NCBI GenBank assembly: GCA_964646765.1
Contig: CAZYIA010000003.1
Coordinates: 2,815 to 66,814 of the forward strand
Source of the DNA: an uncultured Candidatus Saccharibacteria bacterium
Lineage (GTDB): Bacteria > Patescibacteriota > Minisyncoccia > Phycocordibacterales > UBA9973
Reading direction: 5' to 3'
DNA length: 64,000 nt
Both the position numbers and the translations under genes were made by a program. Shown piece by piece: positions 606 to 57,964 of the stretch. The notes under the pieces are model-generated. The model worked only from the letters and a program-made list of their open reading frames with translations. It had not been told where the DNA came from and made no database searches. Positions within the stretch are counted from its first letter, which is position 1; every line of letters begins with the position of its first letter.

Positions 606-2822
606 ATGAAAAAAGCATTTAAAAATCTTTTCGTTCTCGGGGTGCTCGGCGCACTCTTCTTTTCTGTTGGAACTGCTTTTGCTCAAGAGCAGTTTTCAAC
701 GATGACTCCATTGCTTCGCTCAAAGCTTAATGAGGGTTCAAATTATAATAACTCGCTCGGTTGGAGCACATCGACCTCTGGAGTGAATGGAGGGGACACG
801 GTTGCCCTTACGGTGTTTCTCTATAATCCATCGCAGCAAACCGCGAATAACGTTCGCATCACTCTTACTCCGCAGTCGACTGGTTCAGTATCACAGCAGA
901 CATTTACGGCGACACTTACTGCTGACAACTTTGCGCAAGCAAATGGCAGTACTAGTGTTTCTTTAAATACCCCGACGACACTGACATTCACTGGGATCGA
1001 CTCACAAGGAGCAACTGCAGTTGCCCTTTGGAAGGATCTTGGCGGCACTAACGGTACTAGTGATGCAACTGTTTCATATATTGATGGTTCAGCACTCTTT
1101 AATGGTGGTTTAAATATCGGCTCCCTTGCCCCAGACTGTCCTGGAGATGGTGGCTGTCACCAGGGGGCTCTTGTTATTCATTTCCGTGCAGGTCAAGGAC
1201 AACAGCAGTCGCAGTGTTACATCAATAACTTCTACGCCTCACCATCAAACGTTTCGTACGGTTCAGCAACTACGCTCTACTGGAACTCAACAGGTTGTAC
1301 TAGCGCCAGTATTTCTGGACCTGGTATCTCAAGTACCAACCAGGGTCCGAACGGTTCAATTGGAACCAATGCTCTCTACAATTCTGCAACGTATACCATT
1401 ACCGCCTATGGGTCGGGAGGTTCTGACTCGCGTACTACGTATGTAACTGTAAATCAACAACAGCAACAGAGTTGTTCAATTTCTGCCTACGCTCTTCAAA
1501 ACCAAGTTTCCTACGGTGGTTCAACAACCCTCTACTGGAATTCAACTGGTGTAAACACCGTGTACATTTCTGGTTTGAACTATAACAACTACTACAATCA
1601 GTCATACTCAGGTTCAGTTTCAACCGGAGCAATTTACAACACTCAAACCTATACCTTTACTGCAAACTGTCAGAACGGTGGAACACAACAGCAGACAGTA
1701 ACAGTGTACGCAAATCAGCAGCAAACCTATCAGTGTAACGATGGATATGACAACGATGGCGATGGAAAAATCGACATGAATGATCCAGGTTGTACTTCAG
1801 TTTACGACAATGATGAATACAATCAGGCAACTGCTTCAGTAGTTACGGTGGATGCTTCAAGTATTACCCAGTCGTCTGCTCGCTTGAATGGTCTCTTGGT
1901 TAACTCTGGTGGTTATGCAACGAACGGCTACTTCCAGTGGGGAACAACGAGTGCTCTTGGTACAGCAACTTCAGCAATTTCTCTCGGTAGTGTTGGAACT
2001 AATTTCTACACGACAATCTTTGGTCTCTCGCCAAATACTACGTACTACTTCCGTGCAGTAGCAACAAACGCACTCGGAACATTTTATGGAGATATTGAAT
2101 CATTTGTAACTCCACCAGCAACAGTAATTACTCCACCGACCGTTGTTAACACAACAACAATTGTTTCGGGAACTGGTTCAGGTTCAAATCTTATTCAGCT
2201 TGAAATCGTTCCGAACAACTCAAACGTTGTTGGTATCACCACTGCAGGCGTAACAACTGCACCGACAGAAAATCCAATTATCGCTAATGTCTGTGTGGCT
2301 GACCACGTTACCTACCGTGTGTACTACAAAAATATTTCTGGTCGCACATTAAATGATGCAATCTTACACGTTGAGTTACCAAAGGATGTTACCTTTGAAG
2401 GAACAACTGCTGGTATTTATAACGCTTCTGATAGCACCATTACACTTCCAATTGGTACGCTCATCAAAAACCAAGACGGAACTTTCTTCATCACGGTAAC
2501 TGTGCTCCGCAGTGCTGTTGATCGCGACCTTCTTGTTGCAACCGCAACTATTACCGTTGAAAATCCAACCACGCTTGCTCGTGAGAATGCTATCGCTTAC
2601 GGTTTGGTTTCTACCACCCAATGTGCGAAGAATGGTCTTCTCGGCCTTGCGCTCTTCTCAGGATTCTGGCCAACAAGCCTTATTGGTTGGTTAATTCTTC
2701 TTCTCTTGGTTCTTATGGTGGTCTACCTTGCGAGTCGCTTTTACCGCGACCGTCGACCAGTAGCTCGCCCAGCTCCTCACTACGAGGATATGGATGTCCC
2801 AACGTATCGCCCGGGTCACTAA
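606..2822 (+). CDS. Large cell-surface protein with an N-terminal signal peptide, two tandem ~90-aa Ig-like repeats separated by poly-Q linkers, an FN3-like module and a C-terminal TM anchor
   Basis: ATG at 606. N-terminus MKKAFKNLFVLGVLGALFFSVGTAFA is a signal peptide. The motif SYG..TTLYWNSTG..Y.ITA.G is repeated twice. The module CNDGYDNDGDGKIDMNDPGC and an FN3-like 'NTTYYFRAVATN' are present. The C-terminal hydrophobic stretch LILLLLVLMVVYLASRFYRDRR is followed by a basic tail. Confidence 0.75.
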   Translation: MKKAFKNLFVLGVLGALFFSVGTAFAQEQFSTMTPLLRSKLNEGSNYNNSLGWSTSTSGVNGGDTVALTVFLYNPSQQTANNVRITLTPQSTGSVSQQTFTATLTADNFAQANGSTSVSLNTPTTLTFTGIDSQGATAVALWKDLGGTNGTSDATVSYIDGSALFNGGLNIGSLAPDCPGDGGCHQGALVIHFRAGQGQQQSQCYINNFYASPSNVSYGSATTLYWNSTGCTSASISGPGISSTNQGPNGSIGTNALYNSATYTITAYGSGGSDSRTTYVTVNQQQQQSCSISAYALQNQVSYGGSTTLYWNSTGVNTVYISGLNYNNYYNQSYSGSVSTGAIYNTQTYTFTANCQNGGTQQQTVTVYANQQQTYQCNDGYDNDGDGKIDMNDPGCTSVYDNDEYNQATASVVTVDASSITQSSARLNGLLVNSGGYATNGYFQWGTTSALGTATSAISLGSVGTNFYTTIFGLSPNTTYYFRAVATNALGTFYGDIESFVTPPATVITPPTVVNTTTIVSGTGSGSNLIQLEIVPNNSNVVGITTAGVTTAPTENPIIANVCVADHVTYRVYYKNISGRTLNDAILHVELPKDVTFEGTTAGIYNASDSTITLPIGTLIKNQDGTFFITVTVLRSAVDRDLLVATATITVENPTTLARENAIAYGLVSTTQCAKNGLLGLALFSGFWPTSLIGWLILLLLVLMVVYLASRFYRDRRPVARPAPHYEDMDVPTYRPGH

Positions 2823-2905
2823 CACCCTATAGAGACAATGTAGAATCCGCTCCAAAAGGGCGGATTTTGCGTGATAAAATAAGGGATAGGCAAAAAGCCT
2901 CTACT

Positions 2906-3349
2906 ATGAAAAAAACTTTTACCATTTCAGAACTCCCCGATATCGCGAAAATGATACTCGCTCATGTTGGTAAGGAAAAACGTGAGGGTGCATTGGTTGT
3001 GACCGTTACTGGAGATTTAGGCGCTGGGAAGACCTCGCTTATTCAAGCAATCGCTAAAAAATTACAGATTAAGGAAACAGTGCATAGTCCAACCTTTGTT
3101 ATTTTAAAACGGTATCTAATTCCTAAAACAGCATCCTTAGGGGTTCGGTTTTCCAACCTAATTCATATCGACGCCTACCGTTTGATGCACGAACAAGAAC
3201 TTTCTAAATTAGGTTGGCATGAATTAGTGCACGATCAAAAAAATCTTATTTTTCTTGAGTGGCCAGAAAAAGTTCCTGGTCTTATTCCTAAAGATGCCAT
3301 CTCTATTTCACTCGATCACAAAGGGGAAGCTCGGCGGATTTCGTGGTAG
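2906..3349 (+). CDS. tsaE: tRNA threonylcarbamoyladenosine biosynthesis protein TsaE (YjeE-type P-loop ATPase)
   Basis: Internal ATG at 2906 in ORF 2621..3349. MKKTFTISELPDIAKMIL...VTVTGDLGAGKTSLIQAIAK is the characteristic TsaE P-loop. The upstream extension overlaps the preceding gene and is rejected. Confidence 0.75.
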   Translation: MKKTFTISELPDIAKMILAHVGKEKREGALVVTVTGDLGAGKTSLIQAIAKKLQIKETVHSPTFVILKRYLIPKTASLGVRFSNLIHIDAYRLMHEQELSKLGWHELVHDQKNLIFLEWPEKVPGLIPKDAISISLDHKGEARRISW

Positions 3350-3360
3350 AGTAAGAACTT

Positions 3361-4050
3361 ATGACTCAATCTGCAGAAATCATCCGACAAGTTAGTGCTC
3401 TTTCTTACCTAGGTATTTTTGGGCTTTCATTACTTGCGAATGTTGTTATCCCAGTGCCTGAAGAAATCTCCCTATTGGCTATTGGCTACGTTATCGGCAT
3501 GGGGAAGATTGATCCATTTATTACCACAGCTATTGTTATTGCGGGGCTTTTGGTTAGTGATCTGGTAATCTTTGTTCTTGCTCGCGGAGGGAATAAACCG
3601 TTGTCATTCATCTATAATAAATTTTTTGCGCGCACCCTTTCTAAAGATCCGGACTTTGTAAAAAAACATGTAGAAAAATTTATTTTCTTCTCACGATTTC
3701 TTGTGCAGCTGCGGTTCCTTGGGCCATTTTTGGCCGGGAAAGAAAAAACGTCACTCCGTACTTTTTTAACCTACGAATTTGCTGCACTTTTTCTCTATGT
3801 TCCAATTCTCCTTGCTTTGGGTGATTATTTCCGCGACCGATTTGAAGCAGTCGTTAGTGACTTAGGGGCAGTGCGCAATATCATTCTTATTATTATCGGT
3901 ATTTTTCTTCTCCTCTCTGTTATGCGGGTGATTCGTCAGTTTTTCTTAGGAGATCTTCTCATTTCCCTCAAAAGCGAAAACGAAGAATATGAAAAAACCT
4001 GGATTCCAGGCCTTCTTCGTCGTAAAGAAGAAATGACCCAAGCAGAATAG
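3361..4050 (+). CDS. DedA/TVP38-family integral membrane protein
   Basis: Multi-TM protein with the VTT-type motif ANVVIPVPEEISLLAIGY. Confidence 0.6.
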   Translation: MTQSAEIIRQVSALSYLGIFGLSLLANVVIPVPEEISLLAIGYVIGMGKIDPFITTAIVIAGLLVSDLVIFVLARGGNKPLSFIYNKFFARTLSKDPDFVKKHVEKFIFFSRFLVQLRFLGPFLAGKEKTSLRTFLTYEFAALFLYVPILLALGDYFRDRFEAVVSDLGAVRNIILIIIGIFLLLSVMRVIRQFFLGDLLISLKSENEEYEKTWIPGLLRRKEEMTQAE

Positions 4051-4073
4051 GGAGAGTAGGGTATACTCTTCGT

Positions 4074-6464
4074 ATGGCTAAAGAGGCACGAAAAAAGCTG
4101 GTTTTACTTGACTCCCACGCGATTATTCACCGGGCATATCATGCCTTACCAGATTTTTCGTCGTCGAAAGGAGAGCCAACGGGGGCGCTTTACGGGCTCT
4201 CCACGATGCTTTTGCGTATCGTTACTGACTTAAAACCCGATTATATTATTGCTTGTTACGATCTTCCCCAGAAAACATTTCGTCATGAAGCATATGATGC
4301 CTATAAGGCAGGGAGAGCAAAAGCCGATGAAGCTCTTATCTCTCAGATCATTGAATCACGTCGCGTTTTCGAAGCCTTTGGTGTGCCTATTTATGATGCC
4401 GTTGGGTTTGAGGCCGATGACGTGCTTGGGACAATTGTTGAAATAAGTCGAAGCGAAAAAGATCTTGATATTATCATTGCTTCCGGAGACATGGACACAC
4501 TCCAGCTTGTTGAGGGTACGCGTGTATCTGTTTTTACGTTACGAAAGGGAATTAATGACACCGTGCTCTACGACGAAGAGAGCGTGCTTGAGCGTTTCGG
4601 TTTTAAGCCAAAACTCTTACCTGACTATAAAGGTCTTCGTGGAGATCCATCTGATAACATTATTGGGATCAAAGGTATTGGCGAGAAAACCGCGCAGATT
4701 TTAATTTCTAAAATTGGAACTATTGAGAACCTCTATAAAAAATTAAAAACTGAAAAAGGGAAAAAGGAAATTAAAGAATTAGGGCTTACTGATCGAGTGG
4801 TGAATCTTTTGGTTGAAGGTGAAGAAGAAGCGCTATTCTCAAAAACGCTTGCAACGATTCGTCGCGATGCCCCAATTGCGTTCACGGTACCAGAAAAAAC
4901 ATTTCGTCAGTCCATTATTCTCGCCAACATTGAAGCACTTTTTCGAGAACTCGAGTTTCGCTCGCTGGTGGATCGGTTGCGCAAAGTGTTTGCTGAACAA
5001 GCGGCAGTACAAACAACCATGTTCGAAGAGGCTAACATTTCATCTTTTGATCCAAAGCAGCTCAAAGAACTTACCATTGCAGTTTGGCTTTTAAATAGTG
5101 AGGAAGGGTTACCAACCCCAGAGGATGTCTTAAGGTATAAAAATGCAGCTACAGGAGAAAAAGCCGCTGAGCTTATTTTGGCTGATATTGAGAAAGCCGG
5201 GCTTAGCTATGTCTACAAAACAATTGAACTTCCTCTTATTCCAATAATTTCCAAGATGGAAGAACGTGGAATTGCAGTTGATGTTCAATTTCTTAAAGAG
5301 CTAGGTAAGGAGTACCATAAAAATCTCTCGGCTATTGAGAAAGAAATTTATCGTCATGCCGGGCGAGAATTTAACATCAACTCACCAAAACAGCTCGGTG
5401 AAGTTCTCTATGATGAACTTAAGCTAGGGGAGACGAAAGGTGTACGACTCAAAAAAACTGCTGGTGGTGCACGTTCAACACGCGAGAGTGAGCTCGAAAA
5501 ACTTCGTGAGGCACATCCAATTATCGACGCTATTCTTCGTTTCCGCGAAATTCAAAAACTTCTCTCAACCTATATTGATACTATCCCTGATTTAGTGGGA
5601 AGCGACGGACGTCTCCATGCAAAGTTTCATCAAGCCGGTACGACAACTGGTCGCTTTTCTTCAACTGATCCTAACCTCCAGAATATTCCCATTAAGAACG
5701 ATCTGGGGCGTCGCGTTCGTCGCGGATTCGTCGCGGCAAAAGGACACACACTGCTTTCATTCGACTATTCACAGATTGAACTTCGTATCGCAGCCCTTCT
5801 TTCACAGGATGAATATCTTTTGAAGGTATTTGAAGAAGGCCGGGATGTACATGCCGCGGTTGCTTCTCGAGTGTTTGGTGTTAAAGAAACAGATGTTACT
5901 CGCGAAATGCGCCGTCGCGCAAAGGTTATTAACTTCGGAATTCTCTATGGCATGGGAGTAACAGCCCTTCAACAAAATTTAGGTACTGATAGAAAAGAAG
6001 CTCAAGCTTTTTACGATAATTATTTTGCTGAATTTCCAACGATTCGTGGTTACCTTGATGGAGTACTCGAATTTGCTGAGGCGAAAGGTTTTACCGAAAC
6101 CCTTTTTGGTCGCCGTCGTTACTTTGCTGCTCTTAAATCTAAAATTCCCTTTATTAAGGCCGCAGCAGAGCGTACGGCTATCAATGCTCCAATTCAAGGA
6201 ACTGCTGCTGATGTGCTTAAAATTGCCATGCAGCGCGCCGAGCGTGAACTTGCCGCCCAGAAACTTTCTGACAAAGCCCACCTGCTTCTTCAGGTGCATG
6301 ACGAACTCATTTACGAAGTTGAAGACAGTGTTGTTCAAAAAGTGGAAAGCATTGTTGAGGAAGCAATGCAAAATGCTATTCCACCAGAATTTTTGAAAGG
6401 TAAAAAGCCAGTACCACTTGCTGTTGGTAAAGGGCAAGCTTCTAATTGGGAAGATCTAAAATAA
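4074..6464 (+). CDS. polA: DNA polymerase I (5'-3' exonuclease + polymerase domains)
   Basis: 796 aa. The N-terminal 5'-nuclease domain (LLDSHAIIHRAYHAL..) and the family-A polymerase motifs (RRRAKVINFGILYGMG, QVHDELIYEV) are present. Confidence 0.9.
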   Translation: MAKEARKKLVLLDSHAIIHRAYHALPDFSSSKGEPTGALYGLSTMLLRIVTDLKPDYIIACYDLPQKTFRHEAYDAYKAGRAKADEALISQIIESRRVFEAFGVPIYDAVGFEADDVLGTIVEISRSEKDLDIIIASGDMDTLQLVEGTRVSVFTLRKGINDTVLYDEESVLERFGFKPKLLPDYKGLRGDPSDNIIGIKGIGEKTAQILISKIGTIENLYKKLKTEKGKKEIKELGLTDRVVNLLVEGEEEALFSKTLATIRRDAPIAFTVPEKTFRQSIILANIEALFRELEFRSLVDRLRKVFAEQAAVQTTMFEEANISSFDPKQLKELTIAVWLLNSEEGLPTPEDVLRYKNAATGEKAAELILADIEKAGLSYVYKTIELPLIPIISKMEERGIAVDVQFLKELGKEYHKNLSAIEKEIYRHAGREFNINSPKQLGEVLYDELKLGETKGVRLKKTAGGARSTRESELEKLREAHPIIDAILRFREIQKLLSTYIDTIPDLVGSDGRLHAKFHQAGTTTGRFSSTDPNLQNIPIKNDLGRRVRRGFVAAKGHTLLSFDYSQIELRIAALLSQDEYLLKVFEEGRDVHAAVASRVFGVKETDVTREMRRRAKVINFGILYGMGVTALQQNLGTDRKEAQAFYDNYFAEFPTIRGYLDGVLEFAEAKGFTETLFGRRRYFAALKSKIPFIKAAAERTAINAPIQGTAADVLKIAMQRAERELAAQKLSDKAHLLLQVHDELIYEVEDSVVQKVESIVEEAMQNAIPPEFLKGKKPVPLAVGKGQASNWEDLK

Positions 6465-6515
6465 CTAGATTCTTTTTATATACACTCCGCGTCAGGGGTG
6501 GAGAATGTGTATAGT

Positions 6516-7313
6516 TTATTTTGGGCGAATTTCGGAGTCGAGGCGTTTTGCTTCTGCCCAAGACAGTTCGTAAATTTTTTTCATAGCGTCTGCAATTTCG
6601 GCACTTTCAATAATAATACCAAGTTTTTCTCGCCAAGAAGCAATCATAACTTTATTGTCGTAAATATTTATTTCGGGAGAAAAATAAAATTTGTCTTTTG
6701 GTACAAAGGCGCTCTCTCGAGATTCTTCCTTGTCGTGTCGTCCTCGCTCAAAGCCAATATCAGTGTAGGGAATAATAGCCCGAATAGCGATGCCAGCACC
6801 CGCGCGGCGCTTGTAGTACTTTGGGAAATAGTTTGGAAGTGCAGCATGCATGTCATCCACAGTAGCGTATGCTCGAATTGGTTCGTGGGCAGTCAGTGTA
6901 TCCTCGTATACTTGTTGCATTCCTTCGGTCCCTTCGTAAAAACGCACACGTGGCCGACCAGCAACATTGTGAAGCGATTTTAGTTCTGGCACGAGAGTTT
7001 CTTGCGCAAGTTTTAATGCCTCGTGGCGATTTTTAATTTCTTCTGAAATAAATATCTCAATAGCCTCGGGAGATTCAGCCGCGTATTCTTGTTTTGGTTC
7101 TTTTCCGGAAACACTCGCCAGACCTTTTTGGGTGAGGGAATCCAAAATATCGTAGCCAGTAGTTCGATTAATACCCGCTTTTCGAGCTATCTGAGAAACC
7201 GTTCCTTTTCCTAATTCAAGGAGGGCTAAATACACAGCAACTTCTTTCTCGGAAAAGCCAATAGATGAGAGGGAAGTGCGAACCTTTAAATACTTATCTG
7301 ACTGATTTTTCAT
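6516..7313 (-). CDS. TrmB-family HTH transcriptional regulator
   Basis: N-terminal wHTH GFSEKEVAVYLALLELGKGTVSQIARKAGINRTTGYDILDSLTQKGL is typical of the TrmB family. It is divergent from the Cys-rich protein gene across a 370-bp AT-rich region. Confidence 0.65.
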   Translation of the reverse strand: MKNQSDKYLKVRTSLSSIGFSEKEVAVYLALLELGKGTVSQIARKAGINRTTGYDILDSLTQKGLASVSGKEPKQEYAAESPEAIEIFISEEIKNRHEALKLAQETLVPELKSLHNVAGRPRVRFYEGTEGMQQVYEDTLTAHEPIRAYATVDDMHAALPNYFPKYYKRRAGAGIAIRAIIPYTDIGFERGRHDKEESRESAFVPKDKFYFSPEINIYDNKVMIASWREKLGIIIESAEIADAMKKIYELSWAEAKRLDSEIRPK

Positions 7314-7429
7314 ATTTCTAACCTTATCATATGGAGGCTAATTGTGTCAATAATATTCCACAAAATTATATATTTATTTAAATTAACTTTAAAATAAGGC
7401 TTTAAATAAGAATATATTGACGCTTGGTA

Positions 7430-7458
7430 TTGACAAATTAAAATCAAACTGCTATGCT
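7430..7458 (+). promoter_or_regulatory. Sigma-70-like promoter (TTGACA-17nt-TATGCT) about 230 nt upstream of CDS 7686
   Basis: ttgaca aattaaaatcaaactgc tatgct has near-consensus -35 and -10 elements with 17-nt spacing. It lies in the AT-rich divergent intergenic region. Confidence 0.35.
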
Positions 7459-7685
7459 TTCTGTGAAATTCTATGGTCGTTTAGTAGGTAACTGGTTATA
7501 GACATATGGTAATACTTTTTATTGTGTTGCTAGTGGTCGTGATTGTTTCTGTGAGCCCTTCACCAGATTGTCATAAGAATAAATTTGATTTGCACTAGTA
7601 TGAACACTAATTTTTAGGGTAGAGAAATTGTATTTATCTATCCTATAAAGTTAGTAGCAAATAACGTATACTGACTTTTATATCC

Positions 7686-9383
7686 ATGAAAGATACTCAG
7701 ACAGGTTCGATGCAAACATGCAAGACATGCTCAAAGGAATTTGAAATACGCATGGAAGATAAAATCTTCTACGAGCAGGTAAAGACGGTTTCGCCTTTAT
7801 TTTGCCCAGAATGTCGCATGGCGCAGCGATTACAGTTCCGAAATGAAAGAGTTCTCTATAAGCGACCATGTGATCTGTGTAAGAAAGATATGGTCACACT
7901 CTATTCTCCTGAATCACCATATGTAGTCTACTGCAGTAAGTGTTGGTGGAGTGACGAATGGAATCCAAAAGATTTTGGAATGGAGTACGATCCGAGTAAG
8001 AAATTTTTTGACCAATATCGTGAACTTCAAAGTAAAGTTCCGCGACTCGGATTAGTTGCAATTCAAAATGTACGAAGTGATTACACTAATGGCTCAGCAG
8101 AGAATAAAGATTGCTATCTTGTTTTTGCCGCAGATTATAATGAAGAGTGCTTATACGGACGCTTGCTTCAAAGAGATAAGCAGTGTGTAGACTGCGCTTT
8201 TTTGCACGAATCGGAACTTTGTTACGAATGTATTGACTGCCGAGAATGTTTTAAGTGCATGTTCTCTGAGCAATGTCAGTCTTCAACAGATCTACTGTTT
8301 TGCTACAACCTGAGAAATTCAAATAATTGTATTTTTTGTACTAATGGCAGGAATCTTTCAAACGCAATATTCAACGTCCAATATTCTAAAGAAGAATTCG
8401 AGAAGAAAAAAGCAGAAATTTTAAAAGACTATGAAAGCATTGAAGAAGCAAAAAAAGAGTTTGAAGCACTAAAGAAAAAGACGCTGCGCAAATTTACGAT
8501 GCAGACAAAATGCCACAATGTGACCGGTGACTACATTCACAATTGTTACGATGGTGTGGAGCTCTTTGATACCTACGATGCAAAGAACTGCTCATATATG
8601 AAAGATACCGAAAAGCCTCTTGATAGCATGGACTGCAATAACTATTACTATAATCCGCAACTCGGTTATAACGTCATGGGAGCTCTCGAAGGAAGCATGA
8701 TGAAAAATTCTGCCTTCGTCTTTTACTGTAACGACGTTGAGTACTGTGATAATTGTCATCATCTTTCAAATGGCATTGGTTGCATCTCGATACGGAAAGG
8801 GGATTACATGATTTTAAATAAAAGTTATTCAAAAGAAGAGTATCTTGATATCAAGAAAAAAATTGAGAACCAACTCAAGGAAGATAATTTACTAGGCCAG
8901 TTTTTCCCTCCCAACGTTGCTCCTTTTGCCTACAACGAGTCTTTGATCCAGGACTTTTACCCACTTTCTCGCGAAGAAGCATTACAAAGAGGGTATCGTT
9001 GGCAAGAACACCATACCGGCACTTTCGGTAAAGAAACAATTACCGAGGAAAATATTCCTACAAGTATTGAAACTACTCCCGATTCAGTTCTTTCAGAAAT
9101 TTTAGCTTGTACTGAATGCGGAAAGAATTTTCGTCTCACTGAGATGGAGCTTTCCTTCTATCGTCGTATGGGTATTCCAGTACCACATAAAGACTTTGAG
9201 TGTCGACATCAAGATCGAATGAAAAAGCGTAATAGCATGAAGCTTTGGCACCGTTCCTGTATGTGCGAACAAAATGGGCATGATCATGCCGGTAAGTGTC
9301 CAAATGAATTTGAAACAACCTATGCCCCGGAGCGAAGCGAACAGATTTACTGCGAACCCTGCTATCAAAAAGAGGTTTCCTAA
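7686..9383 (+). CDS. Cys-rich multi-zinc-ribbon protein of unknown function (paralog 1 of 2; 565 aa)
   Basis: About 60 Cys. An N-terminal zinc-ribbon pair (CKTCSKEF..FY..CPECR ... CDLCKK..VYCSKCWW) and a homologous C-terminal ribbon (CTECGKNF..FY..P..CRHQ ... CEPCY). The central CxxCxxCxxC cluster is ESELCYECIDCRECFKC. It has the same length and architecture as CDS 56267..57964. Confidence 0.8.
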   Translation: MKDTQTGSMQTCKTCSKEFEIRMEDKIFYEQVKTVSPLFCPECRMAQRLQFRNERVLYKRPCDLCKKDMVTLYSPESPYVVYCSKCWWSDEWNPKDFGMEYDPSKKFFDQYRELQSKVPRLGLVAIQNVRSDYTNGSAENKDCYLVFAADYNEECLYGRLLQRDKQCVDCAFLHESELCYECIDCRECFKCMFSEQCQSSTDLLFCYNLRNSNNCIFCTNGRNLSNAIFNVQYSKEEFEKKKAEILKDYESIEEAKKEFEALKKKTLRKFTMQTKCHNVTGDYIHNCYDGVELFDTYDAKNCSYMKDTEKPLDSMDCNNYYYNPQLGYNVMGALEGSMMKNSAFVFYCNDVEYCDNCHHLSNGIGCISIRKGDYMILNKSYSKEEYLDIKKKIENQLKEDNLLGQFFPPNVAPFAYNESLIQDFYPLSREEALQRGYRWQEHHTGTFGKETITEENIPTSIETTPDSVLSEILACTECGKNFRLTEMELSFYRRMGIPVPHKDFECRHQDRMKKRNSMKLWHRSCMCEQNGHDHAGKCPNEFETTYAPERSEQIYCEPCYQKEVS

Positions 9384-9389
9384 AGCGCA

Positions 9390-9923
9390 TTGCGTCCATT
9401 CTTAAGAGGTGTAGAATGGCAGAAGTATTGCGCTCCGTCAGTTTCTATGTGGAAAATCGATAAAACAAACCTCATTCATATTGTTTTAGGACATTCATAC
9501 CTTGTGTATTTTGCCTCTATTTTGATTGGTCTAGCTATCGATATTGGTTGGCAGTACCACCTGGAACAAACTCTTCTTACAGGAATAGTGGGTTGGGTGC
9601 TCATAGTTGTTGGACCAGCAATTGTGTACTGGGCGCAGCATTCGTCTGTAAAACTCGCGGTTAAGCGTATTTGTGATGTGCATGGTATTTGCCCTGATGA
9701 TTTTCGTAAAGGTCCATATGCCTTTACTCGAAGTCCAACAAATTTTGGACTTTTCCTAATGATCATTGGTCTTGGTTTTATCCTTTCATCAGTTTCAGTG
9801 GTAGTTACAACCATCATCGCATTTTTGCTCACCCGCTATGTATTTATTCGCAAAGAAGAACAGCTTCTCGAAGAAAAATATGGTGACGCCTACCGGGATT
9901 ACAAATCCCAAGTTCGCATCTAA
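9390..9923 (+). CDS. Membrane-bound methyltransferase of the isoprenylcysteine carboxyl methyltransferase/phospholipid MTase (ICMT/PEMT) family
   Basis: Four or five TM helices. The C-terminal motif is GPYAFTRSPTNFG...RKEEQLLEEKYGDAYRDYKSQV. The track start is a TTG; an internal ATG (MWKIDKT) is an alternative start. Confidence 0.6.
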   Translation: MRPFLRGVEWQKYCAPSVSMWKIDKTNLIHIVLGHSYLVYFASILIGLAIDIGWQYHLEQTLLTGIVGWVLIVVGPAIVYWAQHSSVKLAVKRICDVHGICPDDFRKGPYAFTRSPTNFGLFLMIIGLGFILSSVSVVVTTIIAFLLTRYVFIRKEEQLLEEKYGDAYRDYKSQVRI

Positions 9924-10951: not shown

Positions 10952-11485
10952 CTATTTTCCTTGTCGTTCAAGGCCAATCCAGGCGGTGACGGTGAGTCCG
11001 AGGAGGCCAAGAAGTGACATGAGCGGGATAGTAACAAAACCGAATTCAGCCACGAAACGTTGTGTACATGATACCGCAGCATCACACACAAAGAGTGCCC
11101 CGCCACCCCAGTCGATATAATTGTGGTAGAGAGAAATAACTAAGCCAACAAGTGAGAGTACTAAGGTGTAACGGAAAACACTTCTGTCGCGAGTGATAAG
11201 TGCAACTGCGTAGAGAAGTACTTGCGGATAAATTGCAAGACGCTGCCACCAGCACAATTGGCATGGCGGGTAACCAATGTAGCCTGAATATAAGAGACTT
11301 ACAATTGCTCCAGAAAGTGCGATACCAAAACCGATCCACTCTAAATGTTTTGATACAGGGTCAAGAATAGGATGAGCAACTTTTCGGTTAAATGCGTGGG
11401 CGATAAGCGCCACCAAACCCACAGCTCCGATTGAGAGCGTGCCAATAGCAGCAATGAAGTTAAGTGTGTTGGTGAATGTTTGCAT
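10952..11485 (-). CDS. Disulfide bond formation protein B (DsbB/BdbC family) membrane oxidoreductase
   Basis: Four TM helices and the CQLCWWQR motif (compare BdbC CxxCWYQR), plus a second Cys pair CDAAVSC. Confidence 0.65.
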   Translation of the reverse strand: MQTFTNTLNFIAAIGTLSIGAVGLVALIAHAFNRKVAHPILDPVSKHLEWIGFGIALSGAIVSLLYSGYIGYPPCQLCWWQRLAIYPQVLLYAVALITRDRSVFRYTLVLSLVGLVISLYHNYIDWGGGALFVCDAAVSCTQRFVAEFGFVTIPLMSLLGLLGLTVTAWIGLERQGK

Positions 11486-11487
11486 AC

Positions 11488-12087
11488 TTATTTTTCAGCT
11501 GGTAACTGACAGCCAGTTTCTTCAGACAAAAGAGCGAGACTGGTTTCTCCTGAAAGGCGAGAAGTTGCTGGATCGAAGGTGTATGTTTTTTCATCTCCTT
11601 CTCCAGTGGTAGTTGGTGTACTTGTTGTCATTACGCGAACAGCTTCTCCGCTATTGAGTGTAAATACCCACTGCGTAAATAGTTTTGATTCGTTACCCCC
11701 TTCTCCTGGTTTTGAAACAATCGGATTAGTTTTTGTGTGAAGCACGATTGGTTTTGTAAAGGTCCATGTTGGGTATCCCTCGATTTTATTATCAGTACAT
11801 ACTTGCGTTTGTGATGCTCCATCTGGGTTAGAACATTCAGTGTATAGATCGATAGCTTCAAGTTTTTGGCGTGACATACCAAACTCACGTTCCTGGGCTT
11901 GGCAGTGTGGGCACCAGAATGCTCCGTAAAACTTTGCACCTTGGTCTTTCAAACACTGAGCAAAACCATCGTACACCCCTTTTTTATTTGATGAGTAAAT
12001 GGCAAAGGCAATAGCTCCGGCGATAAGAATAATGACAACTGCGATTGTAACTTTTTTTGATGTATCCATAGATAGAAAGTATAGCAA
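11488..12087 (-). CDS. Membrane-anchored thioredoxin-fold thiol-disulfide oxidoreductase (DsbA/BdbD-like) with a C-terminal extension
   Basis: N-terminal TM anchor followed by FYGAFWCPHCQAQ (CPHC active site). It sits immediately upstream (minus strand) of the DsbB-like gene. Confidence 0.65.
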   Translation of the reverse strand: MLYFLSMDTSKKVTIAVVIILIAGAIAFAIYSSNKKGVYDGFAQCLKDQGAKFYGAFWCPHCQAQEREFGMSRQKLEAIDLYTECSNPDGASQTQVCTDNKIEGYPTWTFTKPIVLHTKTNPIVSKPGEGGNESKLFTQWVFTLNSGEAVRVMTTSTPTTTGEGDEKTYTFDPATSRLSGETSLALLSEETGCQLPAEK

Positions 12088-16238: not shown

Positions 16239-16952
16239 TTACCCAGCAATAGAGATAGCGATATAAATGACGAGGGCGCCAAGGATGGTCATCGCGGTGG
16301 TCCATTTTGTTGGATGTCCGTGAAAACTTTCAGGAATTAAGTCACTTGCACCAATGTACAAGAAGAATCCAGCGAAGAGAGAAAGTAGCAATGAAAGGGT
16401 GGATTCTGAAATAGGGAAGAGATATGCAATGAACACGCCAATAATTGGAGCAATGGAATCAGCTAAAAGCCAATGCATGGCTTTTTTTTGGTTCCCGCCA
16501 TTTTTCAATACAACACTAATAGTATTGATACCGTCAGAGAAATCGTGAGCGAGCACAGCAATGGCAACGATAATTCCTAAGCTCGCTGAAACTTGGAAGG
16601 ATAAACCAACACCGAGGCCATCTAAGAGACTGTGAAATGAAAGACTTCCTGCGCGCAAATCAGAACGTCGATGATCGTGGTCGTGACTCTCGTGAGTATG
16701 GGGGATAAAAAAGCGATCAACAACCAGATAGAGTAAAAAACCAATTGCTGTTACCAAAAGACCCGTTGAGAGAGGATGATAAGCGCTTCCTAATTCGAGC
16801 GATTCCGGAAGCAGATCAAAAAAAGCTACTCCAATAACTGCGCCAGCAGAAAATCCCAAGATAAGGTGGAGTTGGTCTTTAAACCGAAGAGCGAGAGAAC
16901 CGCCCAAGTAGGTCATGATGCCTGCGAGGAAGGCGATACTAATAATAAGCAT
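16239..16952 (-). CDS. ZIP-family divalent metal (zinc) transporter
   Basis: Eight TM helices, a His-rich loop HTHESHDHDHRRSD, and conserved HSLLDGLGVG / AHDFSDG motifs. Confidence 0.75.
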   Translation of the reverse strand: MLIISIAFLAGIMTYLGGSLALRFKDQLHLILGFSAGAVIGVAFFDLLPESLELGSAYHPLSTGLLVTAIGFLLYLVVDRFFIPHTHESHDHDHRRSDLRAGSLSFHSLLDGLGVGLSFQVSASLGIIVAIAVLAHDFSDGINTISVVLKNGGNQKKAMHWLLADSIAPIIGVFIAYLFPISESTLSLLLSLFAGFFLYIGASDLIPESFHGHPTKWTTAMTILGALVIYIAISIAG

Positions 16953-18021: not shown

Positions 18022-18693
18022 ATGAAGTTTATTGATCTTACGCATACTCTCTCAAGCGATACTGTTTCCTGGGATGGCGATTGCGGATTTACTCTCACTA
18101 ATCAGGTTGATTACCAAGATTGCGTGTCACCAGATCTGTTTCGAGTCCAAAAAATAGAAACCCGAGCAGGAATGGGTACGCATATGGATGCTCCAGCACA
18201 CTGTATCTCTGGTGGAAAAACAATCGAAGCACTCGAACTTTCTGATTTGATAACCGATTGCGTGGTTATTGACGTTTCGAATGAAGCTGACGAAAATTTT
18301 TTGGTTACGCCGGAGGTAATAGAAAGCTTTGAAAAAGAATATGGAAAAATCCCCGAGCGTGCCTTCGTGATTTTTTATACCGGCTGGAGTAATTATTGGG
18401 ATGATAAAGAAAAGTATCGCAATAATCTACAGTTTCCTTCGGTTTCTGAAGAAACAGCAAAAGTATTACTTAAACGAAATATTGCAGGACTCGGTATTGA
18501 TACGCTCTCAGCTGACACAGGCAAAAATGGTTTTCCGGTACACCGATCAATTTTGGGCGCAGGGAAGTATCTGGTTGAAAACATTGCTAATGCAAGTGAG
18601 CTTCCACCAACTGGCTCAAAAATTTGCGTGTTGCCGATAAAAATTAAAGAGGGAACTGAGGCGCCTATTCGGTTAATCGCCCTTGTTGGGTAA
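18022..18693 (+). CDS. Cyclase-family protein (kynurenine formamidase-like metal-dependent hydrolase)
   Basis: HMDAPAH motif and the overall pattern (FIDLTHTLS...GIDTLSAD) match the putative cyclase / arylformamidase family. Confidence 0.6.
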   Translation: MKFIDLTHTLSSDTVSWDGDCGFTLTNQVDYQDCVSPDLFRVQKIETRAGMGTHMDAPAHCISGGKTIEALELSDLITDCVVIDVSNEADENFLVTPEVIESFEKEYGKIPERAFVIFYTGWSNYWDDKEKYRNNLQFPSVSEETAKVLLKRNIAGLGIDTLSADTGKNGFPVHRSILGAGKYLVENIANASELPPTGSKICVLPIKIKEGTEAPIRLIALVG

Positions 18694-18766
18694 GCTGAAA
18701 TTTTACTTTTCAACAAATAAATGTTATTGTGTCAAGTATCTACTAGCCCTAGCAATAAGAGTTTTC

Positions 18767-19294
18767 ATGAAAGATTTTAAGAAATCGAACGGATTTGGTA
18801 ATAGAGACCGTGGGGGAAATCGTTTCCCGAAGCGTGATTTTGGAGGCCGCCCAAGTTTTGGTGGACGCAATGATCGTGGCGGAGATTCTCGCCGACCAGA
18901 TATGCACCAGGCAACATGTGCTAACTGTAATAAACAGTGCCAAGTGCCATTTCGTCCAAACGGGGAAAAGCCAGTGTACTGTAATGACTGTTTTGGAAAT
19001 GTACGCGGTGATTCAAAGCCAAACTTTGAAAAGCGAGGTTTTAACGATCGCGGAGATCGTGGTAATCGTGAGAACTCATTTTCAAAACCTCAAAGTGAAC
19101 ATCGCGACACTCGCATCGATGACTTGAAGCGCGAAATTACTGCGATGAATATAAAACTCGATCGCGTCATGGAAATGTTGAAAGAAAGTACTGCAAAGGT
19201 TTCTATTCAATCCGAAACAAAAAAGTCAGCTAAGAAAGCAGAAAAAACTAAAACGATAGTAGTAAAGAAAAAGCCTGCTTCAAAAAAGAAATAA
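18767..19294 (+). CDS. R/G-rich, K-tailed zinc-ribbon protein (CxxC..CxxC), hypothetical
   Basis: ATG at 18767 (MKDFKK). RG/RGG-rich N-region, then CANCNKQCQVPFRPNGEKPVYCNDCF, then a lysine-rich C-terminus, suggesting nucleic-acid binding. Confidence 0.55.
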   Translation: MKDFKKSNGFGNRDRGGNRFPKRDFGGRPSFGGRNDRGGDSRRPDMHQATCANCNKQCQVPFRPNGEKPVYCNDCFGNVRGDSKPNFEKRGFNDRGDRGNRENSFSKPQSEHRDTRIDDLKREITAMNIKLDRVMEMLKESTAKVSIQSETKKSAKKAEKTKTIVVKKKPASKKK

Positions 19295-56266: not shown

Positions 56267-57964
56267 ATGGAAAATCGAAACTGCCAAAATTGTAAAAAGA
56301 ATTTCACAATTGAATCTCGTGATTTTAACTATTACGAGAAAATTGGTGTTCCAGCACCGTCATGGTGCCCACTCTGTCGTTTTATTCGCCGCACGGCGTT
56401 TGTGAACGGGTGGTCACTTTTTTGGCGAAACTGCGACAAGTGTTCAAAGCGCACGCTTTCGATGTATCCACCGGATCAAAAAATTACGGTGTACTGCCAA
56501 CCGTGTTGGTGGGGAGATAGTTGGGATGGAACCGAGTATGCGCAAGACTATGATCCGTCGAGGCCATTCTTAGAGCAGGTGAAAGAACTTTCAGAGAAGA
56601 CACCATTTTGCGCGCTCGAGACTACATACCTAACGCTCAAAGACTGCGAGTATTGTAATGCAATTGCTTACGGTAAAAACTGCATGCTCGCGACTTGGCT
56701 CGACTACTGCGAAAATGTCTGTTTTTCTTCATACTTAAATGGCAGTAAAGATATTTCAGACTGTCTTCGCATGCAGGAATCGGAACTCTGCTATGAATCA
56801 ATTGGCCAAACAAAAGGGTATCACGTTTTTTATTCAGAAGAGTGTGATGGTTGTACTGATGTATGGTTCTCCCGCAATCTCTATAGTTCGAGTAACTGTA
56901 TTGGCTGTGTAAATATGCGTGGTGCTTCGTACTGTATTTTTAATGAGAAATATACGAAAGAAGAATACGCGGAAAAATTGAAAGAGTTTAAATTACATAC
57001 TCGAGCGGGAATTCTCGCTTTTAAAGAAAAAGCGGAGGCGTTTTGGAAATCTCATCCGTATCGCGAGTACTCAGGAAATACCTTGAACGTAAACGTTACC
57101 GGAGAATATACCTACCAGTCAAAAAATTCTACCGACATGTACATTTCGACTGGCGCCGAAGATTGTGCGCACAGCCAATTTATTACGGTAGCACCAGCGC
57201 GCGACTGTACAGATTACTCGGGGTGGGGAAATGGTGCTGAACTTATTTATGAATCAGCAAACATTGGTGACAACGTGAACAATGTTCGATTTTCGGTCTA
57301 TTGTTTTCCAGATGTGCTGCAGACTGAATACTCAATGTGGGCGATTGCTGGAAAATATAATTTTGGTTGCGTAAATCTTAAAAGAAAACAGTATGCGATC
57401 TTGAACAAGGTTTATGATAAAGAAACTTATGAAAAACTTCGTGCCGAAATTATCGAAGATATGAAAAAGCGTCCATATGTAGATGTAACTGGCAAACAAT
57501 TTTTCTACGGTGAATTTTTCCCGCCGGAGTTTTCAAAGTTTGCATATAACACTTCGAACGCTTCTAAATATTTTTGGAAAACAAAAGAAGAAGTCGCTCT
57601 CATGGGTTCATTTTGGTACGACGAGGAACCGCAAAATATCGTAGCAACAATAACTGCTGATGCATTGCCAGAAACAATTGCCGAAGTGAGCGAGGCGATT
57701 ATGAAAGAAACTATTCAGTGCGCTACCTGTGATCGAAAATATCGTATTGCTCAACTTGAGCTTTCTATTCTCCAAAAGCTCTTAATGCCGATTCCGACGA
57801 GTTGCCCAAAGTGCCGTGAAGCGAGTCGCTTTAAAAAGATGAATATGCCAATACTTCGAGACTCAAGCTGTGCACATTGTGGTAAAGCCATTAAAACGGC
57901 GTTTCCAGCTGATACGGACAAAACTGTGTATTGTGTCTCTTGCTATCAGGCCACAGTGATATAA
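56267..57964 (+). CDS. Cys-rich multi-zinc-ribbon protein of unknown function (paralog 2 of 2; 565 aa)
   Basis: Starts 3 nt after the ruvX stop. It has the same length and architecture as 7686..9383: N-terminal ribbons (CQNCKKNF..YY..P..CPLCR ... CDKCSK..VYCQPCWW), conserved ESELCYE, and C-terminal ribbons (CATCDRKY.. CPKCR ... CAHCGK ... YCVSCY). About 30% identity to paralog 1. Confidence 0.8.
   Translation: MENRNCQNCKKNFTIESRDFNYYEKIGVPAPSWCPLCRFIRRTAFVNGWSLFWRNCDKCSKRTLSMYPPDQKITVYCQPCWWGDSWDGTEYAQDYDPSRPFLEQVKELSEKTPFCALETTYLTLKDCEYCNAIAYGKNCMLATWLDYCENVCFSSYLNGSKDISDCLRMQESELCYESIGQTKGYHVFYSEECDGCTDVWFSRNLYSSSNCIGCVNMRGASYCIFNEKYTKEEYAEKLKEFKLHTRAGILAFKEKAEAFWKSHPYREYSGNTLNVNVTGEYTYQSKNSTDMYISTGAEDCAHSQFITVAPARDCTDYSGWGNGAELIYESANIGDNVNNVRFSVYCFPDVLQTEYSMWAIAGKYNFGCVNLKRKQYAILNKVYDKETYEKLRAEIIEDMKKRPYVDVTGKQFFYGEFFPPEFSKFAYNTSNASKYFWKTKEEVALMGSFWYDEEPQNIVATITADALPETIAEVSEAIMKETIQCATCDRKYRIAQLELSILQKLLMPIPTSCPKCREASRFKKMNMPILRDSSCAHCGKAIKTAFPADTDKTVYCVSCYQATVI

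Follow-up and report, generated by a model that had tools for sequence, protein, structure and literature searches.

The DNA analysed here is a stretch of 64,000 nucleotides (nt), referred to as the window, from an uncultured Candidatus Saccharibacteria bacterium (GenBank assembly GCA_964646765.1, contig CAZYIA010000003.1). Two open reading frames (ORFs) in the window, p1 and p2, were examined together with the protein family to which both belong, which is given the working name FAM. Our analysis placed p1 in a large, almost exclusively patescibacterial family, as its TrmB-linked ortholog. Both ORFs are genuine genes, as listed below.

7686..9383, + strand: p1, 565 amino acids (aa), scoring 886 bits against the family hidden Markov model (HMM)
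56267..57964, + strand: p2, 565 aa with 33 Cys, a member of a different orthologous subfamily, beginning 2 nt past ruvX

ORF calls placed two 565-aa frames on the + strand, as an earlier sequence-only reading of this DNA had reported, and BLASTP gave 32% identity between them end to end (E 3e-93), in agreement with its figure of about 30%. Every motif quoted in that reading was located in p1 (CKTCSKEF..FYEQ..CPECR; CDLC..VYCSKCWWSDEW; ESELCYECIDCRECFKC; CTECGKNF..FYRR..CRHQ), while its count of about 60 cysteines was too high, the actual numbers being 37 in p1 (6.5% of residues) and 33 in p2. The equal length of the two proteins had been taken as a strict constraint; this was rejected since the start codon of p1 is ambiguous and full-length family members are mostly ~545-610 aa long, which makes the identical length partly a coincidence. 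Because most p1 orthologs (67-92% identical) are 550-561 aa long, p1 probably starts at Met9 (ATG at 7710), giving a protein of 557 aa. The exact p1 sequence was found in public assemblies, and the named members of its cluster are listed as 'hypothetical protein'.

Domain architecture of the family

The anatomy of FAM was derived from an alignment of 174 full-length family members out of related loci, with sub-profiles compared by HHalign. The alignment showed a quasi-palindromic order of predicted parts, in which a double C4 finger module, beta-solenoid A, beta-solenoid B, an acidic linker and a second double C4 finger module follow one another. In p1 these parts and their fingers were assigned as follows.

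7710..8021, + strand: N-terminal double zinc-finger module, residues 9-112
Finger 1, C12,C15..C40,C43: CxxC-x24-CxxC, zf_Tbcl-like
Basic helix/linker after finger 1: R44,R48,N53..K59,R60
Finger 2, C62,C65..C83,C86: CxxC-x17-CxxC of the zf_Tbcl_2 type, then WWSDEW
8022..8471, + strand: central domain A, residues 113-262, predicted Cys/Ser-ladder beta-solenoid with the CYECIDCRECFKC run
8472..8891, + strand: central domain B, residues 263-402, predicted beta-solenoid
8892..9092, + strand: acidic conserved linker, residues 403-469 (GQFFPP..APFAYNES..FYPLSREEAL.RGYRW), joining domain B to the C-terminal module
9093..9380, + strand: second double zinc-finger module (C-terminal), residues 470-565
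Finger 3: C475,C478..(D503)C506-R-H508
Finger 4: C525-x-C527-[10-residue HDH insert]-C538..C556,C559

The N-terminal and C-terminal finger modules are homologous at the level of family profiles (HHalign probability 99.7%, E 1e-26), and residues 476-560 of p2 match p2's own N-terminus in tblastn (E 5e-8), so that the homology of the two terminal ribbon modules proposed in the sequence-only reading was borne out. The central domains A and B are homologous to each other as well (HHalign probability 99.95%, E 2e-38). Each finger module is composed of a CxxC-x24-CxxC finger and a CxxC-x17-CxxC finger with a very basic helix/linker between them, and each central domain closes with a conserved (F)GC.gLR.K.YCI.NKqYsKEEY motif that is followed by a helix. 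In p1 the domain A terminus reads C215-x2-C218..R222..N230-x-QYSKEEF before its capping helix and the domain B terminus reads G365-C366..Y374-x-I-L-N378-K-x-Y-SKEEY plus a helix. Finger 3 of the p1 subfamily has lost one Cys, with Asp in its place, and carries a conserved His instead, and the largest insertion site of the family lies within the first knuckle of finger 4.

Conservation and charge are distributed unevenly along the protein. Column entropy was 1.6-2.0 bits in the finger modules versus 2.2-2.4 bits in the solenoids, with its peak at p1 residues 330-345, and between paralogs no part of the protein varies more than domain B. In the linker, conservation is 94-99% at G404, P408, Y416, N417 and W439, and 90-93% at P426, G436 and P458. 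The linker is acidic (family median net charge -6), the finger modules are basic (median isoelectric point, pI, ~8.4-8.7) and the full-length protein lies slightly on the acidic side (median pI 6.35). Since none of 202 family members has a transmembrane-like segment, the ~550-600 aa proteins appear to be soluble and cytoplasmic. An AlphaFold2 (AF2) model of p1, built from a 59-sequence alignment, had a mean pLDDT of 80 and a pTM of 0.78; its finger modules and domain B were confident, and domain B was modelled as short, regularly spaced strands.

The polar residues K141, E153, D169, E177 and Y180 are conserved and have equivalents in domain B. Such K/E/D/Y residues recurring in both solenoids would be expected if FAM were an enzyme with its active site on or between the solenoids (such as a transferase of acyl or other groups, in the manner of left-handed beta-helix enzymes) and with the fingers as structural caps. 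The same idea could draw on a 731-aa relative from the search of representative proteins, P0370, which has a ~150-aa N-terminal extension that looks GNAT acetyltransferase-like by eye, although this is a one-off case that was not relied on. An enzymatic role is nevertheless improbable, as conservation is lowest in the solenoids, neither Hexapep nor any further enzyme-family model matched at E<=1 and the fold matches are at the level of a generic solenoid only. It was also observed that P0370 has lost most of the cysteines of fingers 1-3 and has kept the fold motifs.

Finger ligands and the central cysteine ladder

In the 174-member alignment, conservation of the finger cysteines is 98-99% for fingers 1 and 4 and 79-98% for finger 3, and finger 2 is lost in ~30% of paralogs. 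The fingers are predicted to hold structural zinc. The cysteines of the central domains follow a different pattern. Each position of the central CxxCxxCxxCxxC run is Cys in just 33-57% of members, individual cysteines are swapped singly for Ser, Val, Leu, Ile or Thr between paralogs, and the presence of Cys is weakly correlated within putative central tetrads (r up to ~0.3-0.5). Obligate Zn(Cys)4 or Fe-S sites among the central cysteines were rejected on their conservation, substitution pattern and weak co-occurrence, and the dense central cluster noted in the sequence-only reading is not conserved as a metal site. More than 98% of the Cys-Cys separations in domain A are multiples of 3, with peaks at 3, 9 and 12, as would be expected of an inward-facing ladder and not of obligate metal ligands. 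The central cysteines fit such a ladder within a triplet-periodic Cys/Ser/aliphatic solenoid.

These patterns bear directly on the suggestion, made in part in the sequence-only reading, that FAM is a metal-storage, metal-buffer or redox-sensing protein whose cysteines chelate zinc or Fe-S clusters or act as a thiol switch. The 37 cysteines of p1, the repeated CxxC pairs at 9-residue spacing and the His-rich HDH insert in finger 4 are in keeping with this role, as are a ZIP transporter gene that is syntenic with p1-type genes and a CutA1-like gene that recurs beside family members. Readings as a redox, Fe-S or metal-storage protein are weak, however, because the central cysteines are poorly conserved, singly replaced and weakly co-occurring, and p2 is equally conserved while lacking most of them. 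A metallothionein-type protein was rejected on its composition, as Cys makes up just 6.5% of residues against ~15-30% expected, aromatic residues are abundant (Tyr+Phe+Trp 12.2%) and the central cysteines vary between paralogs. A 4Fe-4S ferredoxin-like protein was likewise rejected, as the run has no following CP, the CxxCxxCxxxCP motif is absent, and neither Fer4-type nor metallothionein models matched at E<=1. Ten paralogs of 560 aa each would furthermore be a costly store for a few metal ions, and storage, buffering or redox sensing is thus an unlikely function for this family.

Comparison with known protein families

The core domains had no significant match in Pfam, NCBIfam, PADLOC, the PDB sequence search or the fold searches, where matches for the core reached the generic-solenoid level only. 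The terminal fingers do match known zinc-finger families, and the earlier statement that p1 could not be assigned to a known family therefore stands for the core and not for the fingers; its description as a multi-zinc-finger protein with homologous terminal modules is supported. For the C-terminal finger of p2, PF23477 (zf_Tbcl_2) gave 30.2 bits (gathering score 27) and TIGR04272 gave 24.7 bits (cut-off 36), so that only the first of these thresholds was passed. Neither model matched p1 at E<=1, and the kinship of its modules to those of p2 was established by alignment and HHalign. The CxxC-x17-CxxC spacing is present in finger 2 of p1 (C62-x2-C65-x17-C83-x2-C86) and in fingers 2 and 4 of p2, and the first knuckle of p1 finger 4 is split by its insert (C525-x-C527-x10-C538). 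Residues 11-48 of p1 scored 12.3 bits against PF13451 (zf_Tbcl; E 0.17), missing the gathering score of 24, and a few p1 orthologs carry a precomputed PF13451 match.

FAM fingers 2 and 4 are like the zf_Tbcl_2/TIGR04272 proteins in having the same spacing and the C-x2-C-x-K..[FY]-x-P..VYC-x2-C-aromatic signature. Small CxxC-x17-CxxC proteins of Methanosarcina mazei were shown by ICP-MS to bind zinc (PMC12704099). In contrast to zf_Tbcl_2 proteins, which are single fingers of ~40-60 aa or have RGG-rich flanks, FAM proteins have four fingers framing two solenoids over ~560 aa, and finger 4 of p1 further differs from zf_Tbcl_2 fingers by its 10-residue insert and lack of an HMM match. A third protein of the window with this finger type is encoded at 18683-19294 (+), with a likely start at Met29 near 18767. 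It is a small RGG/RG-rich protein with a Lys-rich C-terminal tail and a zf_Tbcl_2 finger (CANCNKQCQVPFRPNGEKPVYCNDC; PF23477, E 1e-15), and its RGG flanks suggest nucleic-acid binding.

Other cysteine-rich families were considered and rejected. No Pfam match at E<=1 was obtained to Fer4, metallothionein, DnaJ-finger (DnaJ_CXXCXGXG), primase-finger, zf-DNL or Hexapep models; the NCBIfam scan returned LysW and Elf1 fragments only, below threshold, and PDB sequence searches, whether queried by the protein alone or by the family profile, yielded at best a weak match to half a LIM domain (E 0.004 for the profile). Membership of the zf-CHC2, TFIIB ribbon, DnaJ CxxCxGxG and zf-DNL families was rejected in the absence of a significant HMM or PDB match. 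With respect to the LIM consensus (C-x2-C-x16-23-H-x2-C-x2-C-x2-C-x16-21-C-x2-(C/H/D)), the p1 fingers lie 18 residues apart (C43 to C62) versus 2 in LIM, and the last finger alone aligns (E 0.004-0.16). All scores to LIM and to the DksA/TraR C4 finger were sub-significant and thus denote resemblance rather than membership; DksA moreover has a coiled coil, which FAM lacks. A hexapeptide left-handed beta-helix enzyme was rejected, as no [LIV]-G-x4 repeats, Pfam Hexapep match or close structural match were found, and the lack of a hexapeptide signature or Pfam match also sets FAM apart from left-handed beta-helix acyltransferases, gamma-carbonic anhydrases and TmAFP. Disulfides in the style of TmAFP are unlikely because the FAM protein would be cytoplasmic, and each FAM solenoid ends in a family-specific motif plus a helix. 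Anti-phage defence models of PADLOC matched neither p1 nor p2 at E<=0.1.

Family size, distribution and paralogy

A profile search of 1.84 billion representative proteins recovered 5,035 clusters (50% identity) at E<1e-3 and 2,065 at E<1e-30, and nearly all of the best matches were full length. The scores of p1 (886 bits) and p2 (904 bits) against the family profile are inflated, given that the HMM alignment itself includes both proteins; their full-length matches to homologs provide independent support for membership of FAM. More than 3,600 database relatives were found for p1, with no functional name among the best 120 (66-93% identical), and more than 2,500 for p2, of which the best 120 are 58-100% identical. 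Source names of family proteins are 'hypothetical protein' only or, once, refer to the finger domain, and no publication describing the family was found in the literature searched.

A scan of one genome per GTDB species yielded at least 573 stretches that encode the family, and 80 GTDB loci among these were included in our set of retrieved contigs (numbered with the prefix L). The titles of these 80 loci name Nomura-, Staskawicz-, Lipton-, Jorgensen-, Uhr-, Falkow- and Sungbacteria, Paceibacteria, Minisyncoccia or 'Patescibacteria group', and by record labels almost all occurrences of the family are in Patescibacteria (the candidate phyla radiation, CPR). Three contigs, L005, L046 and L073, bear the labels Azospirillum, Burkholderiales and Gammaproteobacteria. 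The label of L046 is probably a binning or taxonomy error, since this contig shares its gene order (ruvX, pilM, pseudouridine synthase, rplS) with the window.

The 84 related loci and the window, which make up the 85 family-anchored loci, contain 202 family genes. Co-directional tandem arrays reach 7-8 copies within 13 kb (L037, L059, L071, L055) and at least 8-10 copies come from single metagenome-assembled genomes. Identity between paralogs is mostly 31-49% (median 38%), while orthologs are 50-90% identical and as well conserved as PolA or TrmB in the same loci; the genes are ancient and individually constrained rather than fast-evolving. The 'second copy' of the sequence-only reading does exist, and the term understates the situation, as p1 and p2 are both ancient members of a very large multi-paralog family. 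They are not recent duplicates of a mobile gene, because their identity is as low as 32%, conserved synteny differs between the two and no relatives were found in IMG/VR viral contigs, PLSDB plasmids or GenBank phages; the lack of relatives in these three collections also led to the rejection of a mobile-gene origin. Split family genes were seen in L002 (1459-3240), L005 (1709-3364), L030 and L105, with pieces of for example 260+323 aa or 350+194 aa, and could be frameshifts, pseudogenes or assembly errors inside arrays.

The p1 locus and the adjacent TrmB-type gene

The features flanking p1 are listed below.

6516..7313, - strand: TrmB-family regulator, divergent from p1 (PF01978, E 1e-16)
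7343..7365: candidate operator, an imperfect inverted repeat TGTGTCAA-N8-CACAAAA (TGTGTCAATAATATTCCACAAAA) that overlaps the trmB -35 box
7430..7458, + strand: sigma-70-like promoter facing p1 (TTGACA, 17-nt spacer, TG-TATGCT), predicted by promoter scan
9390..9923, + strand: PEMT/ICMT-family membrane methyltransferase (PF04191, E 2e-9), 6 nt 3' of p1

The divergent TrmB-like regulator named in the sequence-only reading was confirmed, and its link to the family is conserved, with a TrmB-family gene beside FAM in 15 of the 85 loci and upstream and divergent in 13 of them. In the same loci TrmB homologs are 55-72% identical to the TrmB of the window where the p1 orthologs are 51-74% identical. 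The spacer between the two genes, described earlier as an AT-rich region of about 370 bp, measures 372 bp and has 28.5% GC compared to 43% for the window. A repeat equivalent to the one in this spacer, TTTGTCAA-N8-GAACAAA, occurs at the matching position in L001, L006, L007, L009 and L072, and the variant TGTGTCAA..C(C/G)ACA(A/G)AA in L016 and L022, giving the consensus T(T/G)TGTCAA-N8-..ACAAA across TrmB-FAM spacers. We infer that this repeat is a candidate autoregulatory operator of the TrmB-like regulator. The predicted p1 promoter implies a leader of ~225 nt, and TTGACAA faces FAM in 12 of 13 orthologous spacers, six of which share TACTTGACAA upstream of a TATA(A/C)T-like box. An Rfam search of the p1 5' leader and intergenic region gave no match, which argues against a riboswitch there. 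The leader holds a 30-codon hydrophobic mini-ORF at 7507-7599 (+) (MVILFIVLLVVVIVSVSPSPDCHKNKFDLH), which may be a remnant since relatives have small genes at this position, including a lipoprotein-like gene in L002.

On its 3' side p1 is probably co-transcribed with the methyltransferase gene. The family assignment of this neighbour in the sequence-only reading was correct and the gap is 6 nt rather than the 7 nt it gave. The neighbour is kept in the closest relatives only (the contig carrying P0001, and L027), and a conserved partnership with PEMT/ICMT proteins was rejected on account of this limited adjacency. Genes of the p1 type stand alone: a divergent TrmB gene, sometimes a small gene (CutA1-like, acylphosphatase or TMEM175-like) and then FAM, with a convergent CCA-adding enzyme gene downstream and UPF0102, ZIP transporter and M23 peptidase genes further on.

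Several other neighbours were recorded. The ZIP zinc transporter gene of the window (16239-16952, -) has counterparts within a few kb of p1-type genes in different species (cluster c7: L011, L012, L017, L018, L021, L022, L072), and it is syntenic with p1-type genes in 10 loci of the first set; a CutA1-like gene immediately adjoins family members in L001, L059, L063, L086, L101, L107 and L108. These neighbours may indicate divalent-metal handling or plain synteny. Genes for a DsbB homolog (PF02600) and a CPHC thioredoxin-fold protein lie side by side at 10952-11485 (-) and 11488-12087 (-), and would act as a pair in disulfide-bond formation. The pair lies 1.5 kb past p1, on the other strand, and is also found next to the closest p1 relative. 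At the start of the window (606-2822, +), upstream of tsaE-VTT-polA, a 738-aa protein with a weak DUF11/CLIPPER repeat match may be a surface protein.

Gene context of the other subfamilies

Other subfamilies of FAM have different conserved neighbourhoods. The p2-type order is pseudouridine synthase, one or two FAM genes and rplS. In at least 10 loci the family follows grpE, in the order rpsK-rpsD-rpoA-rplQ-rplM-rpsI-grpE-FAM(1-3)-paaX-like (convergent)-dnaK; these loci are mostly complete and often have a T4CP-like ATPase gene next in line. The term T4CP-like is used here for P-loop ATPases resembling VirD4, TraG, TrwB and HerA, which matched the models T4SS-DNA_transf, DUF87, TrwB_AAD_bind and TraG-D_C at or above threshold and, in PADLOC, gave weak matches to the mad8 and HerA models only.

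In 21 of the 85 family-anchored loci 28 T4CP-like genes flank FAM arrays or are interleaved with them, and in L035 ATPase and FAM genes alternate three times. A reciprocal test, in which a metagenome scan was anchored on the T4CP-like ATPase, gave 80 loci, many of them short contigs; a family gene was present in 31 (39%) and directly adjacent in 21 (26%), compared to a rough chance adjacency of ~2% if ~8 family genes among ~900 genes per genome are assumed. A recurrent operon has the order dnaK, T4CP-like (~700 aa), FAM(1-2), T4CP-like (~505 aa), dnaJ and a membrane protein gene. It was found in full or in part in L087, L088, L090, L093, L094, L143 and L150, and Pfam confirmed its HSP70, DnaJ and ATPase domains. 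In L087, for example, dnaK occupies 92-2032, the long ATPase gene 2098-4227, FAM 4228-5976 and the short ATPase gene 6001-7539. It was also observed that the Hsp70 operon, directly 3' of rpoA-rplQ-rplM-rpsI, is interrupted in many Paceibacteria-type contigs, namely the seven just listed and also L025, L029-L034, L048, L049 and L054, with genes in the orders grpE-FAM(1-3)-(paaX-like, convergent)-dnaK-T4CP-like-FAM(1-2)-T4CP-like-dnaJ-membrane protein.

The long ATPase of L087 has a zf_Tbcl_2 finger of its own (PF23477, E 8.5e-11). The corresponding motif, CSxCxKxTxVPFKPEPGRPVYCKxC, is present in 28 of 61 long-form ATPases versus 1 of 37 short forms; in the long forms it comes after the ATPase domain and before a low-complexity tail. 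Finger-bearing long ATPases include those of L087, L088, L094, L143, L025, L031 and L078. The searched text of PMC12102498 counts 5,713 VirD4-like T4CP homologs in 2,918 patescibacterial genomes, of which only 148 lie near virB4. These orphan homologs occur in the same organisms and the same loci as FAM and many of the long forms share its finger, although as P-loop ATPases they are not homologs of FAM. Term searches of the text of that source did not return the FAM-T4CP pairing, and no paper linking VirD4-like T4CP homologs to FAM or Hsp70 was found in the literature searched. Peptidase genes were also seen at the arrays, with M17 leucyl aminopeptidase within them in three loci (L052:4809-6284, L063, L075) and M24 peptidase adjoining them in L002, L040 and L070.

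Tandem arrays of diverged paralogs beside T4CP-like genes could mean that FAM proteins are type IV secretion system (T4SS) cargo or effectors, recognised by the adjacent ATPases and delivered to the hosts of these episymbionts, and T4CPs are described as the substrate receptors of canonical T4SSs in the text of PMC12102498. We consider this very improbable, since ortholog conservation is at housekeeping level, unlike that of typical effectors, and most adjacent T4CP-like proteins lack a membrane anchor. The small fraction of T4CP homologs near virB4 in that source (148 of 5,713) also speaks against export, and four zinc-stabilised folds would be poor substrates for a process that depends on unfolding. 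No T4SS channel component was present among the annotated neighbour clusters, a partial check in which most neighbouring ORFs are unannotated.

The same neighbourhoods are relevant to FAM as an RNA- or nucleic-acid-binding factor, in which RNA or DNA would be bound by the basic finger modules, with a separate RNA, or a separate step of ribosome or tRNA biogenesis or nucleic-acid handling, for each paralog. The very basic helix between the fingers of each module (R44, R48, R52, R55, K59, R60 in one; R507, R511, K513-R515, R523 in the other) is suited to such binding, and the finger type is shared with the RGG-rich protein at 18683-19294 and with DNA-translocase-like T4CP ATPases. Copies of the p2 type lie between pseudouridine synthase and rplS or right after ruvX, the gene for the CCA-adding enzyme adjoins p1-type copies, and those of the grpE type come after the rpoA-rplQ-rplM-rpsI operon; this context is weak evidence, however, because translation genes dominate these small genomes. 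The slightly acidic whole protein and the absence of matches to known nucleic-acid-binding domain models also count against it. Nucleic-acid binding as the dedicated role, which overlaps with an adaptor role and needs neither ATPase nor Hsp70, therefore seems rather unlikely, although it deserves more weight than storage, catalysis or export.

Interpretation

The reading that we tentatively favour, and hold to be possible rather than probable, is that FAM is a zinc-stabilised cytoplasmic adaptor or scaffold that is not an enzyme. Structural zinc would fold four small treble-clef-type fingers, and the two conserved basic finger modules would serve as docking 'hands' for a partner that all paralogs share, which may be nucleic acid or protein. 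The rigid double solenoid, variable between paralogs, would in turn present a surface specific to each of them. Judging from these sequence patterns, FAM would bind rather than catalyse, and its part would be that of an adaptor or scaffold and not of a redox, Fe-S or metal-storage protein. At the level of the family, FAM may work with the orphan soluble VirD4/TraG-like ATPases and be co-organised with the Hsp70 system (grpE, dnaK, dnaJ), a functional partnership that we infer from gene context. For p1 itself, transcription would proceed from its own promoter beside a probably autoregulated TrmB-type regulator.

FAM can be compared in this respect to the DnaJ CxxCxGxG domain and to Hep1/Zim17 (zf-DNL), which are cysteine-zinc modules encoded with, or acting on, Hsp70. 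Hep1/Zim17 is a zinc-finger Hsp70 co-chaperone, and the analogy of FAM to it is drawn from gene context together with this background. Unlike the zinc-finger Hsp70 co-chaperones FAM has no J domain, and a canonical DnaJ is encoded in the same operons.

Several points weigh against the adaptor reading. Domain A was poorly modelled by AF2 (pLDDT 49-65), the conserved polar residues of the solenoids could form a catalytic or ligand-binding site, and a CxxCxxCxxC tetrad at 209-218, which is complete in 48% of members and of which p1 and p2 keep the last two cysteines only, could bind an additional metal in about half of the family. No T4CP-like ATPase or Hsp70 genes were found near p1 or p2 in this window, so the link to these partners reaches both proteins through family membership only. 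Many of the Hsp70-linked loci represent orthologous synteny in related lineages rather than independent events, and chance co-location is inflated because patescibacterial genomes are rich in translation and chaperone genes.

A more specific proposal, which is speculative and rather doubtful, is that FAM and the orphan soluble VirD4/TraG-like ATPases, many of them finger-bearing, form a new Patescibacteria-specific cytoplasmic machine encoded in the grpE-dnaK-dnaJ operon. The paralogs would then be client or cargo adaptors that pass proteins or nucleic acids to a hexameric translocase alongside Hsp70.

Significance

Patescibacteria genomes are ~1 Mb in size, and for the bulk of the genes specific to these lineages no function is known. 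FAM is among their large investments, since the eight to ten or more copies of a 1.7-kb gene carried by some metagenome-assembled genomes are estimated to take up 1-2% of such a genome. C4 treble-clef fingers and beta-solenoids are known kinds of structure; in the libraries searched no description was found of the architecture that combines them, of the family or of its genomic partnerships, and the core has no Pfam model. The observations of the sequence-only reading were confirmed in part and its interpretation was supported in part: it was right in leaving the function uncharacterised and in its TrmB link, was weak in its metal/redox idea and ICMT link, and missed the family size, the arrays and the ATPase/Hsp70 context.

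The role of orphan VirD4-like ATPases in Patescibacteria is treated as an open question in the text of PMC12102498. The gene context of the family described here ties it to this group of thousands of ATPases, to dedicated regulators of the TrmB and PaaX types and to the Hsp70 operon. Should these links prove functional, they would point to a module for proteostasis or translocation that is specific to CPR bacteria, and the 'exapted' coupling proteins would gain a purpose. Otherwise, FAM would still represent a new solenoid architecture, a triplet-periodic Cys/Ser ladder framed by zinc fingers.

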